This document shows, piece by piece, positions 5,190 to 24,435 of a DNA stretch of 64,000 nucleotides. Below the pieces are notes generated by a model, which was not told where the DNA came from, did no database searches, and saw only the letters and a program-made list of their open reading frames with translations. The translations under genes were made by a program, and so were the position numbers. This DNA comes from Candidatus Actinomarina sp. (GTDB taxonomy: Bacteria; Actinomycetota; Acidimicrobiia; Actinomarinales; Actinomarinaceae), in contig JAYQJM010000005.1 in NCBI GenBank assembly GCA_038142145.1, forward strand, positions 451,816-515,815, in the 5' to 3' direction. Position 1 is the stretch's first letter. Each line of letters begins with the position of its first letter.

Positions 5190-6259
5190 TATGGAATTAC
5201 TCCTTCTTCTTTTGCTTTATTTTTTAGGTTAATAAATTCCTCATAATTATTTGTAAAGGTCATTTTGCCATCTCTACTGGTAAGAAGATAGTATATGTAA
5301 TCATTTTCTGGTGTATTAATAATTGCAGTCATAGCTCTTTCTCCAAATCCTGAAATTGGTGTTGGCGGTAAACCTGTAAATTTATATATATTGTAAGGAC
5401 TGTCTACTTGTAAATCAATTAACAAAACTTGTGCTTTTCTTTTTTGTAAAGCATAAAGAATAGATGCATCAATTTGAAGCAACATATCAATTTCTAATCG
5501 GTTTTTAATAACTGATGATACTAAAGGTCTATCTTCATCAATTTTTGACTCAGCTTCTATAAGACTGGCTATTGTAAAGAATTCATTTGCATCATTTATC
5601 CATGTAGGTAAGTTGTTGGTAGAAATTATATTGTTATACCTAAGCTCTAGTTCATCTACAAGTGTTTGAAGTATCTCTTCCCCATTTGCATCTATGTTTA
5701 TCTGATATGTATTAGGAAATAGCAAACCTTCCCAATTTTGAAGATCAACATAATCGTTGTCAGAATGAAATTGTGAGACAACTTTACCTGATTTTAAAGA
5801 ATTTTCTAATTGAATTACTTCGTAACCAGTTTGAGCTGATATAGTTTCAAGAGTTTCAGAAATCCATAAACCTTCAGGAATAGTAATTGTATATGTTTTT
5901 AGAGGAGGACCTTTCAGCAATAATGCGGTTAGTTCACTAAATTCTAAATTATTTGGTAGTTCATAATTACCAGCCCTTAATTTGTCTGTTAAATTTTCAT
6001 TTCTTAAATAAAGTTCAAAAGCAAGTTGAGAACTTATCACACCTGTTGAATCTAAAATACTAGCTATTTGTGATGCAGATGAGCCTTGAGGTATGTTTAC
6101 AAATATAATTTCTTCAACAACACTATTTGAAGATTCTTGAATCACATTTTTTTCAACAGAATCAGCAATACTTGTGATTGAAAAGTACGTAATAAAAATA
6201 AAAATAAATGTAACAAGTAATTGAGCAACAGATCTGTATTTAATGTAATTATTTTTCAT
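5189..6259 (-). CDS. mltG: endolytic murein transglycosylase MltG (YceG-like)
   Basis: 356 aa. N-terminal TM anchor and a YceG domain, including DSPYNIYKFTGLPPTPISGFG. Confidence 0.85.
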   Translation of the reverse strand: MKNNYIKYRSVAQLLVTFIFIFITYFSITSIADSVEKNVIQESSNSVVEEIIFVNIPQGSSASQIASILDSTGVISSQLAFELYLRNENLTDKLRAGNYELPNNLEFSELTALLLKGPPLKTYTITIPEGLWISETLETISAQTGYEVIQLENSLKSGKVVSQFHSDNDYVDLQNWEGLLFPNTYQINIDANGEEILQTLVDELELRYNNIISTNNLPTWINDANEFFTIASLIEAESKIDEDRPLVSSVIKNRLEIDMLLQIDASILYALQKRKAQVLLIDLQVDSPYNIYKFTGLPPTPISGFGERAMTAIINTPENDYIYYLLTSRDGKMTFTNNYEEFINLKNKAKEEGVIP

Positions 6260-6629
6260 TTGTTCTTATATACGTTTCTAATAATTGTAAAGCAGACAAA
6301 TCATCTATTCTCTCTTTACCATTTGTTTCATAAATATCAGAAGAGAATCTTTCATCTACTTTATGTATAGAAATATTGTACTTTTGTAAATAATTAATAA
6401 ATTCATCTACTAAATCCGTCATTCTATTCTTAGAATTATTCATTCCAATGGGATAACCAACAATTATTTTATTTATTGAATAATTTTGCATAAATGTATC
6501 AATCTGTTTTTGTGGATCGGTTTTCTTTTTATCTATTACATCTACAGGTATTGGAATGCTTGTTTTAGTTGTTCTAACAGCCAAACCTAAATATCTTTCG
6601 CCGTAATCAATGGCTAGTAAGTTGTTCAA
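6249..6629 (-). CDS. ruvX: YqgF/RuvX family putative pre-16S rRNA nuclease / Holliday junction resolvase-like protein
   Basis: 126 aa. LAIDYGERYLGLAV start motif. The alaS-ruvX-mltG order is conserved. Confidence 0.85.
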   Translation of the reverse strand: MNNLLAIDYGERYLGLAVRTTKTSIPIPVDVIDKKKTDPQKQIDTFMQNYSINKIIVGYPIGMNNSKNRMTDLVDEFINYLQKYNISIHKVDERFSSDIYETNGKERIDDLSALQLLETYIRTNEK

Positions 6630-14813: not shown

Positions 14814-15725
14814 TTAATTTTTAATTATCTTTGACAAAAACGGAACTGTTACAAATATAGAGCTGTATGTTCCTGAAACGATACCTATCAATAATGGTAT
14901 TGCGAAATCTGATAAGTTTCCTTCAATACCTAGGTAATTACCTACAAATATAATTGAGAGAATTGGAATTGCGGATGTCAATGATGTATTAATACTCCTC
15001 ATAAGAACGTCATTAAAAGTTTTATTTAAGATTTCTGAAGTTAAGTTATCTCTTTTAAATGTTCTTTGAGAATCTTTTAATTTGTCAAAAAGAATAACGG
15101 TGTCGTACAGTGAATATCCTAAAATTGTCAACAATGCAATAATCGTTGACGGCGTAATCTCTAACCCAATTAATACATATATTGAAAAAGTAAGTAATAA
15201 ATCATGCATTAACGCGGCTAAAGCAATTAAAGAATATCTATATTCGTATCTAAATGAAATCAAAAGAGCAATTATTGATAAAAATATGATTAATGCTCGA
15301 ATTCCTTTATCAGTAATTTCAGCTCCAAAAGTTGGTCCTACTCTTTGGAATTCGATTTCATTTTTTTCTACATCAAATTTAGTTGAAAGATAATTTAATA
15401 ATTCTGATTCTTTTTCTTGTGTAGATTCAATAGCTCTAAAAATGATCGTATTGGAATTGTCAAAGGTTTGATATCTTGCAACTTTTAGTATTGTATTGTT
15501 CATTACATCATTTATATCTTCATCTGAATAATTAGCATCAAGTTGATAAGTAGTACCACCTGTAAAATCAACTGACAAATTAAGCTGTGTTAAACCAAAA
15601 ATTGAAGATAACAAAATAGCAATGAACAGAATAAATTCGATAACGAATATCTTGTAGAATTTAGATCCTAAATTTTTAAAATCTATATTTGTAGTACCTA
15701 AGAATAAATTTTTAAACATTTTCAA
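14814..15725 (-). CDS. secF: protein translocase subunit SecF
   Basis: 303 aa polytopic membrane protein in the yajC-secD-secF order. Confidence 0.9.
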   Translation of the reverse strand: MKMFKNLFLGTTNIDFKNLGSKFYKIFVIEFILFIAILLSSIFGLTQLNLSVDFTGGTTYQLDANYSDEDINDVMNNTILKVARYQTFDNSNTIIFRAIESTQEKESELLNYLSTKFDVEKNEIEFQRVGPTFGAEITDKGIRALIIFLSIIALLISFRYEYRYSLIALAALMHDLLLTFSIYVLIGLEITPSTIIALLTILGYSLYDTVILFDKLKDSQRTFKRDNLTSEILNKTFNDVLMRSINTSLTSAIPILSIIFVGNYLGIEGNLSDFAIPLLIGIVSGTYSSIFVTVPFLSKIIKN

Positions 15726-17157
15726 AATCCTTTTGTGTTAATGGAAAATAACTTCTCGGATTTGTAGATATTGAACCAAAAACTGGCACAGCGTTCCTTA
15801 TAAACAATCTTGTATAAAACAAATCAAAAACAGTAGCTATACCCAAGGTAAGTGCAAATCCTCTAATAGGTCCTATTGCCAAAATATACAAAATAACAGC
15901 AGCAATAATAGACACAAAATCAGCAACCAATATAGTGTTCCATGCCTCTGTAACAGCTTTTTCAGCAGCAAAACTAAAAGATCTTCCTATCTTTAATTCA
16001 TCTTTTAATTTTTCAAATATAACTATGTACGAATCAGCTGTAAGTCCAATTGAAACTATAACACCCGCAATACCTGCAAGTGTTAATGTGTAACCCTGGT
16101 ACTCACCGAGTAGGGCTATTACTGAATAAAACAATGCTCCAAAAGAAGCTAATCCTAAAATTGCAATAATCCCAGAGAGACGATAATAAAACAATAAAAA
16201 TATTGATACCATTACTAAACCGACCAAACCAGCTTGCAAACCTAAATTCAAAGTGTTTTCACCTAATGTTGCAGATACTTTTTGAATTGAGGATCTTTCA
16301 AACGCTACAGGTAAAGCTCCGTATCTTAAAATAACTGCTAAGTTGTTAGCAGATTCACCTTGATCAGTATTACCCATGGAGATAGCTGCTGTTCCACCAG
16401 TGATTCCTATTTCTGGATTAACGTCTAAAGCTATTCCTGGTGCGGAAATTACTTGACCATCTAATACTATTGCTAATTTTCTTTGTTCACCAAAATAAGA
16501 AGCTAATCGTTTAGTTAAATCAGTAAATTTATCTGCTGATTCATCTTTTAATACCAGTTGTACAATCCATTCATTCTGAGGGTATACAGCTAATGCGTCA
16601 TCTATATCACTACCAGTTAATTCTGCTGGACCTAAATGGTAAATTACTGGAAAACCATTGTTTAAGGAAAGTAAATAAGAATCTGTATTTGGGTTGTCAT
16701 CAATTGTTAAACCGGTCAAGTTATCTACACCTTGAGGAGCTTCGATTGTTGGGTTCTCAGGATCATCAGGATTTTCTGTAATAGTTAATGCAGGTGAATA
16801 TCCTGTTTCCAACGATGAAGCTAATACAGGTCTAAAAGTCAACAAACCTGTTGTTCCTACAGCTTCTATTGCTCTCTCTTGATCTGTTAATCCAGGTAGC
16901 TGAACTAAAACTGAATTTTCACCACTTATAGAAATTTCTGGTTCTTGAACTTCACCAATAGCAGCTATTCTTGTTCTCATAATTTCAACTGCTTGTTCTA
17001 TTAGCTCTGGATCAGTGCCTTCTTCTGCTGTTAATATAACTGAAACACCACCTTGTAAATCAAGACCCAATTTAGGTTGAATTGAATTAATAAATACATA
17101 TGTAAATAAAGCAATAGAAATCAAAGGCAGTAGAAATAGTTTGAATAAAGACTTCAT
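15712..17157 (-). CDS. secD: protein translocase subunit SecD
   Basis: 481 aa. N-terminal anchor, periplasmic domain (LGLDLQGGVSV) and a 5-TM C-terminal domain. Confidence 0.9.
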   Translation of the reverse strand: MKSLFKLFLLPLISIALFTYVFINSIQPKLGLDLQGGVSVILTAEEGTDPELIEQAVEIMRTRIAAIGEVQEPEISISGENSVLVQLPGLTDQERAIEAVGTTGLLTFRPVLASSLETGYSPALTITENPDDPENPTIEAPQGVDNLTGLTIDDNPNTDSYLLSLNNGFPVIYHLGPAELTGSDIDDALAVYPQNEWIVQLVLKDESADKFTDLTKRLASYFGEQRKLAIVLDGQVISAPGIALDVNPEIGITGGTAAISMGNTDQGESANNLAVILRYGALPVAFERSSIQKVSATLGENTLNLGLQAGLVGLVMVSIFLLFYYRLSGIIAILGLASFGALFYSVIALLGEYQGYTLTLAGIAGVIVSIGLTADSYIVIFEKLKDELKIGRSFSFAAEKAVTEAWNTILVADFVSIIAAVILYILAIGPIRGFALTLGIATVFDLFYTRLFIRNAVPVFGSISTNPRSYFPLTQKDFENV

Positions 17158-17406
17158 TTATTTGAAAGAAATATTAGATTTTAATATTTCAATTTCCCCT
17201 TTTTTAACAACTAGTGTTACACGATCATCTTTTATGTTTGTAACTCTACCAAATATGCCAGAATCAGTTATTACATCATCTCCTATTTTTAAAGCATCTA
17301 CATAATTTTTATGTTTTTTTTGTCGTCTTCTTTGAGGTATGTAAAGAACTACATAAAAGATTATAAATACAGTAATAAGTGGAAGTAACGCTAAGAAATC
17401 ATTCAT
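17158..17406 (-). CDS. yajC: preprotein translocase subunit YajC
   Basis: 82 aa. A single TM, then LKIGDDVITDSGIFGRVTNIKDDRVTL, which is YajC-like. Confidence 0.85.
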   Translation of the reverse strand: MNDFLALLPLITVFIIFYVVLYIPQRRRQKKHKNYVDALKIGDDVITDSGIFGRVTNIKDDRVTLVVKKGEIEILKSNISFK

Positions 17407-18484
17407 TTAAAAATTCCTTTTTATAATTATCAAAATCTGATTTTAATATACTTTCTTTCACTTCGTTAATAATAGTTTCTGTTTGATGTAAGTTATGCAA
17501 TGTTAGATAATACCAAGAAGATGTTGGTTCATTAACTAACAAATGTCTTAGATATGATTTAGAAAAATTCATGCATGATATGCAGCTACAATTTGCTACT
17601 AAAGGATCTAAATCATTTTTAAACTTAGCGTTTTTTAAATTAAAATATTCACCTCTATTTATTATCTTTCCATGACGAGCAATTCTTGCAGGCCAGACAC
17701 AATCAAACATATCAACGCCTAAATCAATCAACTCTATCATTCCCTTTATGTCACCTAAACCCATTACATAACGGAGCTTATTTGTGGGTAAAATTTCATT
17801 AACAAATTTAACTATCTCATTACGTTGGCTTCTTGATTCACCAATCGCTAAACCACCTATTGCATATCCATCAAAATCTAATTCAATCATATGGTTGGCA
17901 GAAATTTCTCTCAATTCTTTATGAATACCGCCCTGGACTATACCAAATAAAGACTGATTGTCGTTTTCATGTATTTCTCTTGCTTCTCTAGCCCAAGTAT
18001 TTGTTGTATTAATTGCTGATAGTTGATCAGACTTTTCTTTATTTGTATCAATTAAATGATCTAAAATCATAGCAATATCACTATTAAGAACATTTTGAAT
18101 ATCCATAGAAAGTTTTGGTGTCATTAAAAATTTTGAACCGTCATAAACATTTGTAAATTCAATACCTTCTTCACTTTGTTTATTAGGTATAGACCATCCT
18201 TGAAATCCACCAGAATCAGTAAGAATTAAATTGTTCCAATTTATGAAATCATGTAGACCACCAAATTGTTGTATTGTTTCTAAACCAGGTCTTAAATATA
18301 AGTGATATGTGTTTCCTAATAGTACAGGGAAATTTTTTAAACTTGATAATGGCAGTGACTTAATAGAACCTCTTGTCGCAACAGGCATAAATATTGGGGT
18401 GTTAAAAGATTTATTATTTATGCTTACTTCATTTACCCTTGCTTCCCCATCGGTAACAACATTTCTAAATTCTATAGTGTTCAT
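17399..18484 (-). CDS. tgt: queuine/preQ1 tRNA-ribosyltransferase
   Basis: 361 aa. TDSGGFQ, MFDCVWPARIARHG and zinc site CSCISCMNFSKSYLRHL. Confidence 0.95.
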   Translation of the reverse strand: MNTIEFRNVVTDGEARVNEVSINNKSFNTPIFMPVATRGSIKSLPLSSLKNFPVLLGNTYHLYLRPGLETIQQFGGLHDFINWNNLILTDSGGFQGWSIPNKQSEEGIEFTNVYDGSKFLMTPKLSMDIQNVLNSDIAMILDHLIDTNKEKSDQLSAINTTNTWAREAREIHENDNQSLFGIVQGGIHKELREISANHMIELDFDGYAIGGLAIGESRSQRNEIVKFVNEILPTNKLRYVMGLGDIKGMIELIDLGVDMFDCVWPARIARHGKIINRGEYFNLKNAKFKNDLDPLVANCSCISCMNFSKSYLRHLLVNEPTSSWYYLTLHNLHQTETIINEVKESILKSDFDNYKKEFLNE

Positions 18485-19461
18485 TTATATTCAAATAATA
18501 CAGCATCCCCAAAACTTAAAAATTTTAATTTATTTTTAAGAGCATATTCATATAGTTCTTTCCAATGCTCACCATATACATTTTCAACTATTGACAACAA
18601 GGAACTCATAGGTGCATGAAAATTTGTAATTAAATAATCTGGAATGTTAATTTTTGTGTCGGGTTTTATAAATAAATCTGTAACTCCATTTATATTATTT
18701 GTTCTGTACGCAGTTTCAATTGCTCTGAGTGAAGTTGTTCCAACGCAATATATAGGTTTACCTTTATTTTTAAAATCTATAATTTTATTGAAATCATCTG
18801 ATGTAATACTGTAAGTTTCTGAATGAATATTATGTTCATCTAAATTAGATGACTTCATAGGTTTAAAGGTGTCTATATTTACATCTAAATTTACAAATGC
18901 AAAATCATTTGATTGTTCCAATTTATTGATTAATTTATTTGAAAAATGTAATCCAGCAGTAGGTGAAGCGACTGAAAAACCATCATCAGAAAACTCATTA
19001 TTATATTTTTTTCTCTTTTCAGGATCATCTTTAATATATGGGGGTAATGGAAGAATGCCATATTTTTTAATTAAATCATTCACATTTACATCAAATTTAC
19101 AAGTAAAAGAGTCTTCATCTTTCTGTAGTATTCGAAAGTTAAAATATGTTGTTTTATATAATTTATCAATATTTTTTCTATCTGACGATTTAATTAAACA
19201 TACTGCTGTGTAATCATCAATAATTTTTAATATAAATATTTCTAGTTTTCCACCTGTTAACTTAGATGTGAGTATTCGTACTTTTTTAACTTTTGATTTG
19301 TTAAGAATAAATAAAGAATTTGTCTGTACTAATTCAGGCAAGTCACTAAATGAAAAAATTTCCCTTGTATTTGCGTTTAAAAGTTTTGAATCTTCAGGGT
19401 TTTCATATGGAAATTGATTTATTGCATTTGAAGGTAACGTGTAATCAAAACGATCACTCAT
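18481..19461 (-). CDS. queA: S-adenosylmethionine:tRNA ribosyltransferase-isomerase
   Basis: 326 aa. LPLPPYIK, PTAGLHF and VGTTSLRAIE motifs. Confidence 0.9.
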   Translation of the reverse strand: MSDRFDYTLPSNAINQFPYENPEDSKLLNANTREIFSFSDLPELVQTNSLFILNKSKVKKVRILTSKLTGGKLEIFILKIIDDYTAVCLIKSSDRKNIDKLYKTTYFNFRILQKDEDSFTCKFDVNVNDLIKKYGILPLPPYIKDDPEKRKKYNNEFSDDGFSVASPTAGLHFSNKLINKLEQSNDFAFVNLDVNIDTFKPMKSSNLDEHNIHSETYSITSDDFNKIIDFKNKGKPIYCVGTTSLRAIETAYRTNNINGVTDLFIKPDTKINIPDYLITNFHAPMSSLLSIVENVYGEHWKELYEYALKNKLKFLSFGDAVLFEYK

Positions 19462-19464
19462 AAG

Positions 19465-19818
19465 TTACTTATTTAATAACTTAATAAAAAGATCATAGGA
19501 CATAGTAACTACTTCGGGAATACCATCGTTAGTTCTTCTTGAATTACCTTCTTTACGCTTTAATTTTTTCCAAAACAATACTGTATTTTCATCACCTGAT
19601 TTTTCTATTGCTTTATCTAAAGATTGATGAATATTGAGATTTTGTCTTGCTTTAGCCTCAATAAAGTATTCTTCTTCCTCAACAAATAGTTGTATATCGC
19701 CTAAATCTTTAGATCCACCTTCAGCAAATCTTTGAGATTTGAATTTTTCATGTTCATTCAATCTATTAACAATATTAGTTTCGTATGTTGTACCCTGTTT
19801 TTTTGCTTTATTTACCAT
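19465..19818 (-). CDS. small PD-(D/E)xK nuclease, Hjc-like putative Holliday junction resolvase
   Basis: 117 aa. QGTTYETNIVNRLNEHEKFKSQRFAEGGSKDLGDIQLFVEEEEYFIEAKAR carries E13, GGS and D41-x12-E54-x-K56. This is the same layout as archaeal Hjc ([45 protein letters not shown]). It occupies the yebC-to-yajC slot that holds ruvCAB in other Actinobacteria. Confidence 0.55.
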   Translation of the reverse strand: MVNKAKKQGTTYETNIVNRLNEHEKFKSQRFAEGGSKDLGDIQLFVEEEEYFIEAKARQNLNIHQSLDKAIEKSGDENTVLFWKKLKRKEGNSRRTNDGIPEVVTMSYDLFIKLLNK

Positions 19819-19838: not shown

Positions 19839-20582
19839 TTATTCAGAAAGTAATGTTTCTAACTCTTTTTCTTCAATATCAAAATTTGTAAAGACCTCTT
19901 GTACATCATCAAGTTCTTCTAGTGAATCTATTATTTTAGAGATGCTTTTTAATTGATCAGCAGATATATTAACTCCAACATTTGGTATGTATGCAATTTC
20001 TGCATTTGACACTATGAATTCTAAATCTTTTAATCCTTCATTTATTTTTTTAAAATCTGATGGATTAAATTCAAAAGTAACACTGTCATTGGACTCAACA
20101 ATGTCTAAACATTCGTTACTTATTGCATAATCAATTAATTCATCACTATATTCATCAAATTGAAATATTGCTTTTCTCTCAAATAAATAATTTACACTTC
20201 CAGGTGTTCCCATAGAACCACCGTGTTTAGTTAAAGTAGCTTTAACATCAGCTGCCGTACGATTTTTGTTATCGGTTAAACAATTAATTAAAATTGCAAC
20301 ACCATGAGGACCGTAGCCTTCGTAAGTAAGTTCAAAAATTTCACCTGCATCTGAATTTCCATCTACTCTCTTTAATGCACGTTCAATATTGTCATTTGGA
20401 ACTGAATTAGATTTTGCTTTCGATATGGCTTGATATAAAGAAGCATTGCTAGAGGGATCTGTACCACCATTTCTTGCGGCAATTTCAATTGCCTTTACTA
20501 ATTTTGCAAATAATTGACCTCTTTTTGCGTCATTTACACCTTTTTTTCTTTTTATAGTTGACCACTTAGAATGACCCGACAT
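19839..20582 (-). CDS. yebC: YebC/PmpR family transcriptional regulator
   Basis: 247 aa. MSGHSKWSTIKRKKG signature. Confidence 0.95.
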   Translation of the reverse strand: MSGHSKWSTIKRKKGVNDAKRGQLFAKLVKAIEIAARNGGTDPSSNASLYQAISKAKSNSVPNDNIERALKRVDGNSDAGEIFELTYEGYGPHGVAILINCLTDNKNRTAADVKATLTKHGGSMGTPGSVNYLFERKAIFQFDEYSDELIDYAISNECLDIVESNDSVTFEFNPSDFKKINEGLKDLEFIVSNAEIAYIPNVGVNISADQLKSISKIIDSLEELDDVQEVFTNFDIEEKELETLLSE

Positions 20583-21147
20583 ATTTACCTTCCTGAATAA
20601 ATTGTTTAAGCCAATCTAGATAATACTCATCATTTGTTAATTCTGGATGGTATGTAAATGAAACTAAATTCTTCTCTTGAACACCAACAACTTCATCAAT
20701 ATGAGTTGATAAAACATTAACCTTGTTTTTATCGTAATCAATTATTTTTGGTGCTCTAATAAAACAATAGATATCTTCATTATCTAAAAACTGCACATTA
20801 CCTTCAAAAGATTCGTTTTGACGACCATACGCATTACGCTGCACTGTTATTGAAATATTTGGTATACATGGAGATCCATCAATGATTTCATTAGCTACTA
20901 ATATTGTCCCTGCACAAGTTGTTAATGTAGGAAGGCCTTCCTTAATTAAATTATCAATATTAGAAAATAAATCATTATATGTGTTTATCTTTCTCATCGC
21001 TGTTGACTCACCACCTGGGAGTATCAGAGAATCTACATCGAATAAATCATCAGGAGTTTTAATTAACGTATAATCTAAATTTATATTTTTTAAAGATTTT
21101 ACGTGATCAAAAAAACTACCTTGTAGAGCAAGTACACCTACAGGCAT
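20566..21147 (-). CDS. pdxT: pyridoxal 5'-phosphate synthase glutaminase subunit
   Basis: 193 aa. GVLALQG, LILPGGEST and the catalytic C in TCAG. Confidence 0.9.
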   Translation of the reverse strand: MPVGVLALQGSFFDHVKSLKNINLDYTLIKTPDDLFDVDSLILPGGESTAMRKINTYNDLFSNIDNLIKEGLPTLTTCAGTILVANEIIDGSPCIPNISITVQRNAYGRQNESFEGNVQFLDNEDIYCFIRAPKIIDYDKNKVNVLSTHIDEVVGVQEKNLVSFTYHPELTNDEYYLDWLKQFIQEGKYVGSF

Positions 21148-22032
21148 CTACCAACCTCTTTTTGCTAACTTCTCTTCTTCCGTTAGTGTATCGATATTGA
21201 TACCTACCATAGGTTCTCCTAAGTCCTTGGAAACTTCAGCAAGTATTTTAGGATCGTTATAGTTAGTTGTTGCTACAACGATAGCTTCGGCTCGTTCTGC
21301 GGGATCTCCACTTTTAAAAATACCTGAACCGACAAAAACACCATCACAACCTAATTGCATCATTAATGCTGCATCAGCAGGAGTTGCTATACCTCCAGCA
21401 GCAAAATTAACTACAGGTAACTTAGCTTCTTCTTTAATTTGTTCCAAGATATGAAGTGGAGCACCATATTTTTTTGAAATTGCAACAAGTTGATTTGTGT
21501 CAGAAGCTAAAACCTCATTAATTTCGTTAGTAATTGTTCTCATATGTCTCACAGCTTCAATTACATTACCAGTTCCCGCTTCACCTTTAGTCCTAATCAT
21601 AGAAGCACCTTCAGCTATCCTTCTAGTTGCTTCCCCTAGACCAGTTGCACCACAAACAAATGGTGTTTTAAAATTATTTTTATTAATGTGATTTACTTCA
21701 TCTGCTGGAGTTAAAACTTCAGATTCATCAATGAAATCGATACCAATAGATTCAATTATTTGAGCTTCAACAAAATGACCAATTCTAGCTTTTGCCATAA
21801 CTGGTATAGAAACAGCATCCATAACTTCTTGAATAACTCCAACTGATGACATTCTTGCCACTCCACCTTCAGCTCGAATATCAGCTGGTATTCTTTCTAA
21901 TGCCATTACTGCAACTGCACCAGATTTTTCTGCAATGACAGCTTGCTCAGCATTTACGACGTCCATAATAACGCCACCTTTAAGCATTTCTGCCAAACCT
22001 TTTTTAATTTTTGATGTTGCTTCTATTTTCAT
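21148..22032 (-). CDS. pdxS: pyridoxal 5'-phosphate synthase lyase subunit
   Basis: 294 aa. [15 protein letters not shown] and FVGSGIFKS. Confidence 0.97.
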
Positions 22033-22049
22033 AAGATAATTTTAACCCA

Positions 22050-23030
22050 TCACTTTAAATACAATAAAATGTATTCTTGCATATTTTTTCGTAAATCATA
22101 TTTTGAAATATGTTCTCTTTGTTTATTAAATATGTTTACCAAATTGTTCCTTGATAAGTTATTTAATGTTTCTATTAAATCATCAAGGTTATTGTTTTTA
22201 AAATATATTCCAGAATCTTCAAGTACATCTTTAAACGCTTCAATATCCGAAGATACAGCTATACATCCATTATTTATTGCTTCAAGTAATGTAATACCAA
22301 AACTTTCACCATGTGAGTTAAGCGCTAAGTAAATTCCTGCATTTTTAATAGTTTCAATTTTCTCTTTGTTGCTTACATTTAATTTATACAGAATACGTTC
22401 ATTAGTACCTTTTTCATTTGTAATTGCAACATAGTTATAAGAAGTATTTAATGAATTTGATAAATCTTCGAAAAGTTTAATATTTTTTCTTTTTTCATTT
22501 CTGCCGATAAATAAATAAGTTGATAAATTATTAAAATTTATTGAATTATCGATTTCAATCATATTTGGAATAATTACTGGAAAAGTTTTCATAGTTAGTG
22601 CATTAGGTGTAGAAGAATCACTAACTGCAACAGAAATATTATTTAATTTTTTAAAAAAATATAAAAACTTTAACAAGAAAATCACAAACTTTGAAAAACT
22701 AGCATGAAATGTAAAAATTAACTTTTTATTTTTAGGTAAATTCCAAAATAAAAGTGGAATGTGTGGCTCGTGTACATGAATAACATCTGCCCAGTTGTAT
22801 GCTTCTTTTAATAACTTCCTAGATGGAAGTATTGATAAGTTTGATTTTGACCCATTAAATGGAATCTTAAACGTATTTTTTATATTAAAGTCATTTGATG
22901 CAGGGGCTAAAATTTTAGATTCAAAATTATCTAAGTTATTTAAATAATTATTAATAAGATTAATTTGTTCTTGTACGCCACCAAAGGTGAGTAAATTGTA
23001 CTGTGTAACTTGTAGAACTTTAGTATTCAC
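22050..23030 (-). CDS. pimA: GT4 glycosyltransferase, PimA-like (phosphatidylinositol mannosyltransferase candidate)
   Basis: 326 aa. N-terminal FGGVQEQ (PimA has GGVQ) and C-terminal ESFGITLLEA (E-x7-E). It lies next to patA-like and pgsA, as in Mycobacterium. Confidence 0.65.
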   Translation of the reverse strand: MNTKVLQVTQYNLLTFGGVQEQINLINNYLNNLDNFESKILAPASNDFNIKNTFKIPFNGSKSNLSILPSRKLLKEAYNWADVIHVHEPHIPLLFWNLPKNKKLIFTFHASFSKFVIFLLKFLYFFKKLNNISVAVSDSSTPNALTMKTFPVIIPNMIEIDNSINFNNLSTYLFIGRNEKRKNIKLFEDLSNSLNTSYNYVAITNEKGTNERILYKLNVSNKEKIETIKNAGIYLALNSHGESFGITLLEAINNGCIAVSSDIEAFKDVLEDSGIYFKNNNLDDLIETLNNLSRNNLVNIFNKQREHISKYDLRKNMQEYILLYLK

Positions 23031-23866
23031 TAGTCCAAATTGGTTGAATTGAATGCCATTGGTTTGGATCTAATTTTATAAGATCCTCTAGTTGTTTCGC
23101 TAAAATTTTAAGTCCGTGTTGAATGCTTTGAGCTTCGTTTTCAAAATGTGGAACAAAAAAAGGATTACCAAAAATTAATTTATATTTGTTATCTTTCTTT
23201 AGAAAAGTTGCGGGAATAATAGGGAGCTGTGTTTTTAAAGCTATAGCGACAGGACCTTTAGGGAATGCAGCCATATTATTAAAAAATTCAACTCCTACAC
23301 CTGATTTACCAACATGTCTGTCTGATAAAAGACATACGTGATAGCCTTCATCTAATTTTCTGACTACTTCATCAAAAGTGTTTTGACCTTTACCACCTAA
23401 AATTATTTTGCAACCCAAATCTTCTCTTAATGATGTAAACCAATTTAAAATTTTTTCATCTTCTAAAGGTTCTGCAACCGCTAATAAATTTAAACCTAAT
23501 CCTTCTCCTTGAGGTATTGCAAACTCCCAATTCCCAACATGAGGTAAAGCAATAATGTAGGAGTTAAATGATTTATTTAATTTTGATATCTCTTCACCAT
23601 TTATAATTTCAACTAAATGGATCTACATATTTTTTATAACCTGCTTTTGTTAACCATATGGTTTCAATCCAATATTTAACATAATTAATCTTTACTTTCA
23701 AAATTGAATATCCCTCAATAAAATTTTTCCTTTTTGATATTCTAAAATTTTGTAAAGGTGTAAAAAAATAATTAATAATTCCAAATGGATATGCAAATAA
23801 TAAAACAAGATTGAGTGGCATCTTACGAATAAATAGATGGATATTTTTTATTAAAACAAATTTCAT
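23020..23866 (-). pseudogene. patA: LpxL/HtrB-PatA family lipid acyltransferase interrupted by a +1/-1 frameshift
   Basis: The track shows two pieces, 23609..23866 and 23020..23418. My translation shows the downstream frame is open from 23622: IHLVEIINGEEISKLNKSFNSYIIALPHVGNWEFAIPQGEGLGLNLLAVAEPLEDEKILNWFTSLREDLGCKIIL... It contains the acyltransferase HX4E motif HVGNWE. The two frames overlap only at 23612..23622. Confidence 0.7.
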
Positions 23867-24435
23867 GAATCTAAAGAATTATATAGATGTAAGAATCTCT
23901 GTATGGCTGTTAACCAAACTATAAAAGTAAATAAATACACAAAAACAAAATCGAAATTGAAATACATGAAAAATATTGCAAACAAAACACGTTCAGGTCT
24001 AGCAGCAATGCCGTATTTATTATCTATACCGTGAAGTTCTGACTTAGCTCTCATATAAGGGATAATATTTGATCCTACGACAATTGAAAAGATTGTAAAC
24101 AATTCTAACGGATTAGATGTATAGGATATTCCTACCACACCCCATATTATTAACTCTCCTACCCTGTCTATAAAAGAATCTAACACTGCACCTTTATTAG
24201 ATGAAAGATTTGTTTTTCTTGCATACGGTCCATCTAAGCCGTCAATTGCACTACCTAAAAATATAAATACTATACCTAAATTAATATTTGATTCGTAAAA
24301 AAAATAAGACCCAAGCAAAATTACTATCAAGCCAATAAATGAAACAGTATTTGGTTTAACTTTTAATTTTATTAAAACGTAAATAAAAGGCTCAGCAAAT
24401 TTCTCACTTGCTTTTTTAAAATATCTTTCAAGCAT
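23863..24435 (-). CDS. pgsA: CDP-alcohol phosphatidyltransferase (phosphatidylinositol-phosphate synthase-like)
   Basis: 190 aa. DGLDGPYARKTNLSSNKGAVLDSFIDRVGE matches D-G-x2-A-R-x8-G-x3-D-x3-D. Confidence 0.85.
   Translation of the reverse strand: MLERYFKKASEKFAEPFIYVLIKLKVKPNTVSFIGLIVILLGSYFFYESNINLGIVFIFLGSAIDGLDGPYARKTNLSSNKGAVLDSFIDRVGELIIWGVVGISYTSNPLELFTIFSIVVGSNIIPYMRAKSELHGIDNKYGIAARPERVLFAIFFMYFNFDFVFVYLFTFIVWLTAIQRFLHLYNSLDS

Follow-up and report, generated by a model that had tools for sequence, protein, structure and literature searches.

How does a bacterial lineage resolve Holliday junctions when the place at which other bacteria carry ruvC, ruvA, and ruvB is occupied by one small gene of another kind? 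The question is raised by a 64,000-nucleotide stretch of DNA from Candidatus Actinomarina sp. (contig JAYQJM010000005.1, positions 451,816 to 515,815; 30.6% G+C; hereafter the window), in which an open reading frame (ORF) that we call hjcL lies between yebC and queA. RuvAB is absent in <2% of bacteria, mostly parasites, according to a 2012 survey (PMC3403352), and homologous recombination is reported to be a strong shaping force in Actinomarinales populations (PMC7771536), which makes the way in which their junctions get resolved a real question. We consider it likely that HjcL is a small metal-dependent, Hjc-like PD-(D/E)xK endonuclease that was acquired from an actinophage and fixed in the place of ruvCAB as a resolvase. 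A first-pass annotation of this DNA, made from the letters and their translations, had described a 117-aa Hjc-like nuclease and proposed that it displaced RuvC, and perhaps the whole of RuvABC, in situ; the ORF, its spacing from both neighbours, and its motif positions are all as claimed there, and the phage origin is a point that it did not see. The gene and its elements are as follows:

19465-19818, minus strand: hjcL, a 117-aa ORF with an ATG start, encoding an Hjc-like PD-(D/E)xK nuclease and predicted Holliday-junction resolvase.
19651-19782, minus strand: catalytic core, from the codon of E13 (19780-19782) to that of K56 (19651-19653), including R30, G34-G35-S36, and D38.
19696-19698 and 19657-19659, minus strand: catalytic core codons of D41 and E54, respectively.
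19519-19572, minus strand: conserved basic beta-hairpin and loop, W83-KKLKRKEGNSRRTNDG-I100, with 7 K/R in 18 residues.

What kind of protein is HjcL? At 13.6 kDa, with an isoelectric point of 8.8, it carries its motif residues at E13, R30, G34-G35-S36, D41, E54, A55, and K56. The order and spacing of these elements, including D-x12-E-x-K, had been likened in the first-pass annotation to archaeal Hjc, and this agrees with the published Hjc motif E-Xn-PD-Xm-E-X-K and with the essential Pyrococcus furiosus residues E9, D33, E46, and K48 (PMC10956419). Searched alone against Pfam, the protein matches PF24608 PDDEXK_15 ('phage putative PDDEXK endonuclease') at 16.9 bits (E 0.006) over residues 4-69 only; NCBIfam and PADLOC searches with HjcL gave no match, and a single-sequence PDB search gave chance matches only. 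Its match to phrog_244 in PHROGs, a family for which there is no curated cut-off, spans residues 1-116 at E 1.1e-11. That family is labelled 'RusA-like Holliday junction resolvase', whereas its members have an Hjc-like PD-(D/E)xK fold and not the RusA fold, and the label looks like a misnomer. For HjcL, 176 homologues are listed, and some IMG records already name its orthologues 'Holliday junction resolvase'. Membership in the RuvC, RecU, RusA, YraN, or NucS families was considered and rejected, with no Pfam or NCBIfam match even at E<=10.

The family as a whole is more telling than its single member. A profile search of 1.84 billion representative proteins returned 241 representatives at E<=1e-3, and we aligned 73 diverse full-length members, which are 31-71% identical to the window protein. 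The catalytic positions are nearly invariant: D41 in all 73, E54 in 72, E13 in 70, and K56 as lysine in 60 and arginine in the other 13. The latter substitution (E-x-R) is unusual for PD-(D/E)xK nucleases, and the window protein has the lysine. Other positions are nearly invariant too (T10 in 73, G9 in 72, D38 and G40 in 71 each, R30, G35, and K73 in 70 each, and E33 in 69), and several in the basic hairpin are conserved (G99 in 70, W83 in 69, K84 in 66, and R95 in 65). When the 73-sequence profile was compared with PDB sequences, the top matches were all Holliday-junction resolvases, at E 7e-4 to 8e-3: Sulfolobus solfataricus (Sso) Hjc (1hh1 and 4tkd), ST1444 (2eo0), the phage enzyme 7bgs (E 5e-3), and Archaeoglobus Hjc (2wcz). 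In this comparison and with hhalign alike, the residues of Sso Hjc that pair with E13, D41, E54, and K56 are E12, D42, E55, and K57; hhalign gave a probability of 95.6% and E 1.3e-8 for the family profile against the N-terminal region of Sso Hjc. At E<0.01, 11 of the 73 members match PF24608 and only 2 reach PF01870, the Pfam Hjc family. HjcL is thus Hjc-like at the superfamily level; by score it falls outside Pfam Hjc and sides with a phage resolvase-like family. Some members (P0169, P0184, P0210, and P0266) reach about 250 aa through about 115 additional N-terminal residues and may be fusions or merged gene calls; the additional residues give weak, sub-cut-off Pfam matches to Sigma70_r4 in P0169 and to KorA in P0210 and none in P0184 and P0266, and these matches of helix-turn-helix type add no information on function.

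The predicted structure points in the same direction. The AlphaFold2 (AF2) model built on the 73-sequence alignment has a predicted local distance difference test score (pLDDT) of 94.2 and a predicted template modelling score (pTM) of 0.86; it replaced an earlier AF2 model on a shallow, Actinomarinales-only alignment, which had a pLDDT of 64.6 and meaningless Foldseek matches (kinases, I-DmoI). Its core runs alpha-beta-beta-beta-alpha-beta (helix 4-21, strands 26-30, 42-46, and 49-57, helix 63-74, and strand 79-84); a beta-hairpin region and a C-terminal helix come after it. D41 stands just ahead of strand 42-46 and E54-A-K56 lies on strand 49-57, which is how a PD-(D/E)xK core is built: strand 2 opens with an acidic residue and strand 3 carries (D/E)-x-K. 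In the basic hairpin region the model has strands at 79-84, 86-88, and 95-97; residues 83-100, a candidate DNA-binding element, probably contact the arms of the junction. The structure comparison that had been proposed for the nuclease call gave P. furiosus Hjc (1gef) as the best PDB match by Foldseek, with E 1.2e-4 and a probability of 1.0, followed by Archaeoglobus Hjc, Sulfolobus Hje and Hjc, and ST1444. Hjc and Hje fill 20 of the first 22 ranks, with probabilities of 0.98-1.0 and E 1e-4 to 1e-2, and every significant PDB match is a PD-(D/E)xK enzyme. Against the predicted viral structures of BFVD, the matches are better and are largely phage 'Holliday junction resolvase' proteins, for example from Gordonia phage Gustav, with template modelling (TM) scores of 0.65-0.73. 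The earlier call of an Hjc-like nuclease therefore stands on the profile matches, the hhalign alignment, and the model; by score, the protein lies below the PF01870 cut-off.

The second step concerns the place that hjcL occupies. Read along the minus strand, the yebC stop (19839-19841) is followed by a 20-nt spacer and the hjcL ATG at 19818, and 3 nt separate the hjcL stop codon TAA (19465-19467) from the queA ATG at 19461. Pfam identifies pdxS, pdxT, and yebC upstream of hjcL and queA, tgt, yajC, secD, secF, and relA downstream. The genes immediately around it are:

20566-22032, minus strand: pdxS-pdxT (Pfam), the upstream end of the syntenic block, which is kept in all Actinomarinales loci.
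19839-20582, minus strand: yebC (TACO1/YebC family; Pfam), directly upstream of hjcL and the gene that precedes ruvC in outgroups.
18481-19461, minus strand: queA (Pfam), starting 3 nt past the hjcL stop.
17399-18484, minus strand: tgt (Pfam), in the same co-directional, tightly packed gene string.
14814-17406, minus strand: yajC-secD-secF (Pfam), which close, on the downstream side, the syntenic block around ruvCAB in Actinomycetota.

To survey this place we scanned the YebC of the window against one genome per GTDB species, which gave 51 loci from Actinomarinales and 29 from other phyla, each of about 16 kb around yebC. The order pdxT-yebC-hjcL-queA-tgt is present in all 50 Actinomarinales species loci that extend past yebC (the 51st, L056, stops inside yebC and was left out), so that the linkage of yebC to an hjc-like gene, for which the first-pass annotation had suggested a survey of related genomes, is found in every informative locus. 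No other phage genes lie near hjcL in these 50 loci, and five metagenomic loci share their gene order, including a lineage that is only 71% identical. Among the outgroups, which include Spirochaetota, Gemmatimonadota, Acidobacteriota, Desulfobacterota, Omnitrophota, Verrucomicrobiota, Bacillota, and Bifidobacteriaceae, ruvA lies just downstream of yebC in 29 of 29 loci, ruvC in 28, and ruvB in 26, which bears out the earlier statement, made for other actinobacteria, that this slot holds ruvC-ruvA-ruvB elsewhere. In several outgroups queA directly follows ruvB, and three loci (L059, L065, and L076) read yebC-ruvCAB-queA. The yebC-ruvC and queA-ruvAB linkages are documented, and queA-ruvB also appears in a STRING table (PMC3403352).

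Searches with outgroup RuvA, RuvB, and RuvC by tblastn against the window and 839 kb of Actinomarinales loci gave no match at E<=1, and no RuvB-type Walker A motif occurs in the six frames of the window, so that the claimed lack of a Ruv-like ORF in the 64 kb holds up. The three genes ruvC, ruvA, and ruvB are absent from their ancestral locus across the sampled Actinomarinales (50 of 50 informative loci); displacement in situ is accordingly upheld for the locus in all 50 species, and loss of the whole machine is seen for that locus. The window also agrees in order with Mycobacterium tuberculosis Rv2614c-Rv2554c, which reads thrS, a pgsA-like gene, an acyltransferase, a glycosyltransferase, pdxS, pdxT, yebC, [ruvCAB], yajC, secD, secF, relA, hisS, aspS, alaS, and ruvX.

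How much of the Ruv machinery has gone from the cell is less certain than its departure from this place. It is possible, if somewhat doubtful, that RuvC alone was functionally replaced, with ruvA and ruvB elsewhere in the genome of about 1 Mb and HjcL partnering RuvAB much like RecU in Firmicutes; this reading narrows the explanation that we prefer and overlaps with it, and the likelihoods of the two are not meant to add up to certainty. RuvAB is found in >98% of sequenced bacteria, and Firmicutes retain it beside RecU (PMC3403352), and the Ruv searches covered the window and the yebC loci of about 16 kb. Yet in Borreliella yangtzensis (L061, 8001-12645), the one outgroup locus with no ruvC match, where yebC is followed by ruvA-ruvB-queA, the loss of ruvC alone has left ruvAB in place, whereas in every Actinomarinales species sampled all three genes are gone from the slot; moving two genes in a streamlined genome would also be less parsimonious than losing both. 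Because all three genes are gone and ruvAB stayed put where only ruvC was lost, the balance tips modestly towards a genome-wide loss of ruvA and ruvB in Actinomarinales. The fuller proposition, that Actinomarinales discarded the entire RuvABC machine and depend for resolution on a domesticated actinophage Hjc-like resolvase in the ruvCAB slot, we put forward tentatively.

The adjacency of hjcL to queA invites another reading, in which HjcL would be an RNA- or tRNA-related nuclease tied to the queuosine genes queA and tgt. The minus strand between 17000 and 22200 has no terminator-like site and no surplus of promoter-like sites, which makes co-transcription plausible, and hjcL, whose stop lies 3 nt upstream of queA, is probably co-transcribed with both yebC and queA. 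This reading is nonetheless very improbable: the neighbourhood of queA and ruvB is an old synteny, seen in the outgroups and in the STRING table (PMC3403352), the intact acidic metal-binding triad with its lysine and the alignment with Hjc indicate a DNA nuclease, and neither queA nor tgt is found near the phage relatives.

Several local irregularities were noted in these loci. In L008/L009 (10454-11890), which represent the lineage whose HjcL is 71% identical, no yajC is called between tgt and secD, whereas it is present in the window and in L005-L007. The hjcL match is truncated in L044 (8810-9112) and L050 (8764-9024), both derived from metagenome-assembled genomes and the latter at least from a long-read assembly; the yebC match of L044 is truncated too, and these truncations may be assembly indels rather than real pseudogenes. 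Farther upstream in the window, a lipid A-type acyltransferase gene (Lip_A_acyltrans; 23020-23868, minus strand) seems to be broken into two ORFs, of 85 aa and 132 aa, that lie in different frames, with one frame open over only about the last 200 codons; the protein is 287 aa in L006 and L007 and has a shorter call of 222 aa in L005. A frameshift, a sequencing error, or a shorter start may account for the split.

The third step concerns where hjcL came from. Its close homologues (70-99% identity) are found in Candidatus Actinomarinales genomes and marine metagenomes, and all sampled relatives outside the order with a readable context (<=53% identity) are on phage-like contigs. Contigs of the non-Actinomarinales cluster members mostly reach no more than about 40-45 kb, which is phage-genome size. 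The contexts are:

P0128: ERF, SSB, and WhiB.
P0274: SSB amid many small ORFs on a 32-kb Tara contig.
P0293: SSB, a weak Rad52-family match, Mom, and MT-A70.
P0173: two genes upstream of the terminase large subunit.
IMG/VR: 78 viral contigs with a relative.
L143 and L095: a homologue that also matches phrog_244, with exonuclease genes close by.

The closest relative outside Actinomarinales (53% identity) is at L010 3557-6413, on an actinophage-like contig of 61% G+C with ERF, SSB, and WhiB, and the next closest are on marine viral contigs of 34-38% G+C (L091-L093 and L169). A tblastn search of cultured-phage records with the window protein found nothing; with the high-GC relative it found one marginal match, the 'holliday junction resolvase' (gp46) of Microbacterium phage Floof. 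A neighbour-joining tree of 162 unique sequences groups the 41 Actinomarinales tips in one exclusive clade, and the sister group includes the ERF-SSB-WhiB contig. The simplest reading is that hjcL was acquired once, from an actinophage, no later than at the base of Actinomarinales.

The family is overwhelmingly phage-borne, and HjcL might in principle serve no housekeeping role, as what is left of a prophage, a selfish element, or a nuclease of restriction or anti-phage defence. Median pairwise figures across about 50 Actinomarinales species, in nonsynonymous (dN) and synonymous (dS) substitutions per site, speak to this; with dS about 1.4, near saturation, the dN/dS values are rough and the ranking by dN is clear:

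hjcL: amino acid identity 80%, dN 0.14, dN/dS 0.09.
yebC: amino acid identity 68%, dN 0.25, dN/dS 0.17.
tgt: amino acid identity 62%, dN 0.32, dN/dS 0.20.
pdxT: amino acid identity 58%, dN 0.37, dN/dS 0.29.
queA: amino acid identity 51%, dN 0.45, dN/dS 0.29.

hjcL is a core gene under tighter constraint than yebC, tgt, pdxT, and queA, and no decaying prophage remnant. This constraint, the fixation at one locus in all 50 informative species, where hjcL has no other phage genes for neighbours, and the lack of a PADLOC match or an adjacent methyltransferase leave a remnant or defence nuclease with hardly any likelihood at all; conservation and context led us to reject a defence or restriction role.

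These observations fit the following sequence of events and mode of action. An ancestor of Candidatus Actinomarinales would have acquired hjcL from the recombination module of an actinophage, and the gene would have become fixed exactly where ruvC-ruvA-ruvB stood, between yebC and queA. By analogy with Hjc, a homodimer of HjcL would bind four-way DNA junctions, E13, D41, and E54 would hold Mg2+ while K56 assists catalysis, and the dimer would make paired nicks that resolve recombination and fork-reversal intermediates. Hjc itself works as a homodimer and places paired nicks close to the junction, and an archaeal Hjc restores repair to Escherichia coli that lacks RuvC (PMC10956419).

An alternative concerns the substrate. 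HjcL could be a domesticated phage nuclease that acts on some other DNA, such as flaps, stalled forks, or mismatches, or by nicking, and is no resolvase; the PD-(D/E)xK fold serves many functions, scattered family members weakly match Mrr_cat, Vsr, and pPIWI-associated REase, and R.SwaI is among the top structural matches in the PDB. We regard this as unlikely, for the best matches in sequence and structure are consistently Hjc and phage resolvases, the phage relatives adjoin ERF, a weak Rad52 match, SSB, and exonuclease genes, and hjcL sits in the resolvase slot after yebC.

Taken together, several observations weigh against HjcL as an Hjc-like resolvase of actinophage origin in the place of ruvCAB. 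HjcL misses the gathering threshold of PF24608 (16.9 versus 27 bits), and the window protein has no PF01870 match at E<=10. The restriction enzyme R.SwaI takes the other two of the first 22 Foldseek ranks, and TM-scores to archaeal Hjc are 0.39-0.50 with root-mean-square deviations of 7-9 A; these modest TM-scores suggest that the C-terminal half of HjcL is not a close copy of Hjc. PD-(D/E)xK nucleases as a group act on many substrates, and junction cleavage by HjcL is predicted from sequence and model. The neighbour-joining tree carries no bootstrap support, and the selection figures come from nearly saturated dS. The Ruv search was limited to the window and the yebC loci, and the window contains a RuvX/YqgF-family gene (126 aa, 6249-6629, minus strand; PF03652, E 9.5e-24) just downstream of alaS, the sole other family inside the window named 'Holliday junction resolvase'. 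RuvX/YqgF is usually considered an rRNA-processing nuclease, which makes it a weak alternative candidate for the resolvase. With these points taken into account, a resolvase acquired from an actinophage still seems to us the likely identity of HjcL.

The nuclease call in itself is not new, as the IMG labels show, and Hjc-like PD-(D/E)xK resolvases are known in archaea and phages. What appears to be undescribed is the order-wide, in-situ replacement of ruvCAB by a phage-derived Hjc-like gene in a free-living lineage. The first-pass annotation was not aware of any description of this arrangement, and we found none in the literature: the search returned no paper that joins Actinomarinales with Holliday junctions, or 'Hjc-like' with Holliday junction resolvase and bacteria, and, among the papers listed, none relevant to Ruv genes in Actinomarina/OCS155 or Acidimicrobiia; ruv and repair genes also go unmentioned in the Actinomarinales genome paper and its supplements. 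A very abundant free-living marine order lacks ruvCAB at the ancestral locus and has a phage-type nuclease there instead, under very strong constraint, and the gene opens the question of junction resolution in it to testing. Such a case would illustrate cleanly how a phage recombination gene is domesticated to a core housekeeping role and would be, after RecU, a second, independent non-orthologous displacement of RuvC. If the replacement is as we propose, a bacterial cell would have an archaeal/phage-type resolvase as its main junction-cutting enzyme; the 13.6-kDa protein could also serve as a convenient minimal resolvase for biochemistry.

Among known systems, archaeal Hjc and Hje (PF01870; 1gef, 1hh1, 2wcw, and 1ob8) share with HjcL the PD-(D/E)xK fold, a size of about 120-140 aa, and the layout E...R...G-S...D-x12-E-x-K, with catalytic residues that align one to one. 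Unlike them, HjcL is bacterial and chromosomal, scores below PF01870, reaches TM-scores of only 0.39-0.50, and has a conserved basic hairpin in its C-terminal half; a PCNA-interaction motif would not be expected in it. Its closest relatives in both sequence and structure are the Hjc-like resolvases of phages (Thermus phage Tth15-6 Hjc, 7bgs; Gordonia phage Gustav; Microbacterium phage Floof gp46), which, including PHROG 244 and PF24608, have the size and catalytic motif of HjcL. The phage enzymes belong to replication, recombination, or packaging modules, whereas hjcL belongs to the fixed chromosomal core and sits within a probable housekeeping operon. YraN/UPF0102 and NucS share with it small size or the PD-(D/E)xK superfamily, but HjcL matches neither in Pfam or NCBIfam at E<=10.

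As an event, the replacement parallels that of RuvC by RecU in Bacillota and the relation of RusA to ruv in E. coli, and differs from both in fold or family, origin, and position. RecU (Bacillota, Mollicutes) is likewise a PD-(D/E)xK nuclease and replaces RuvC lineage-wide, but its genes are found at a distance from ruvAB, and RuvAB has been kept (PMC3403352), whereas hjcL, whose product has no Pfam RecU match, stands in the ruvCAB slot, from which ruvAB is gone. RusA, like HjcL as we read it, is a phage-derived resolvase able to stand in for RuvABC. It is encoded by the cryptic prophage DLP12 of E. coli, and the rus suppressors of ruv mutants depend on RecG. RusA differs in fold, is silent as a rule, and works as a laboratory suppressor only, whereas hjcL is naturally fixed across an order; if our reading is correct, HjcL would be the natural, fixed counterpart of what RusA does for ruv mutants in the laboratory.

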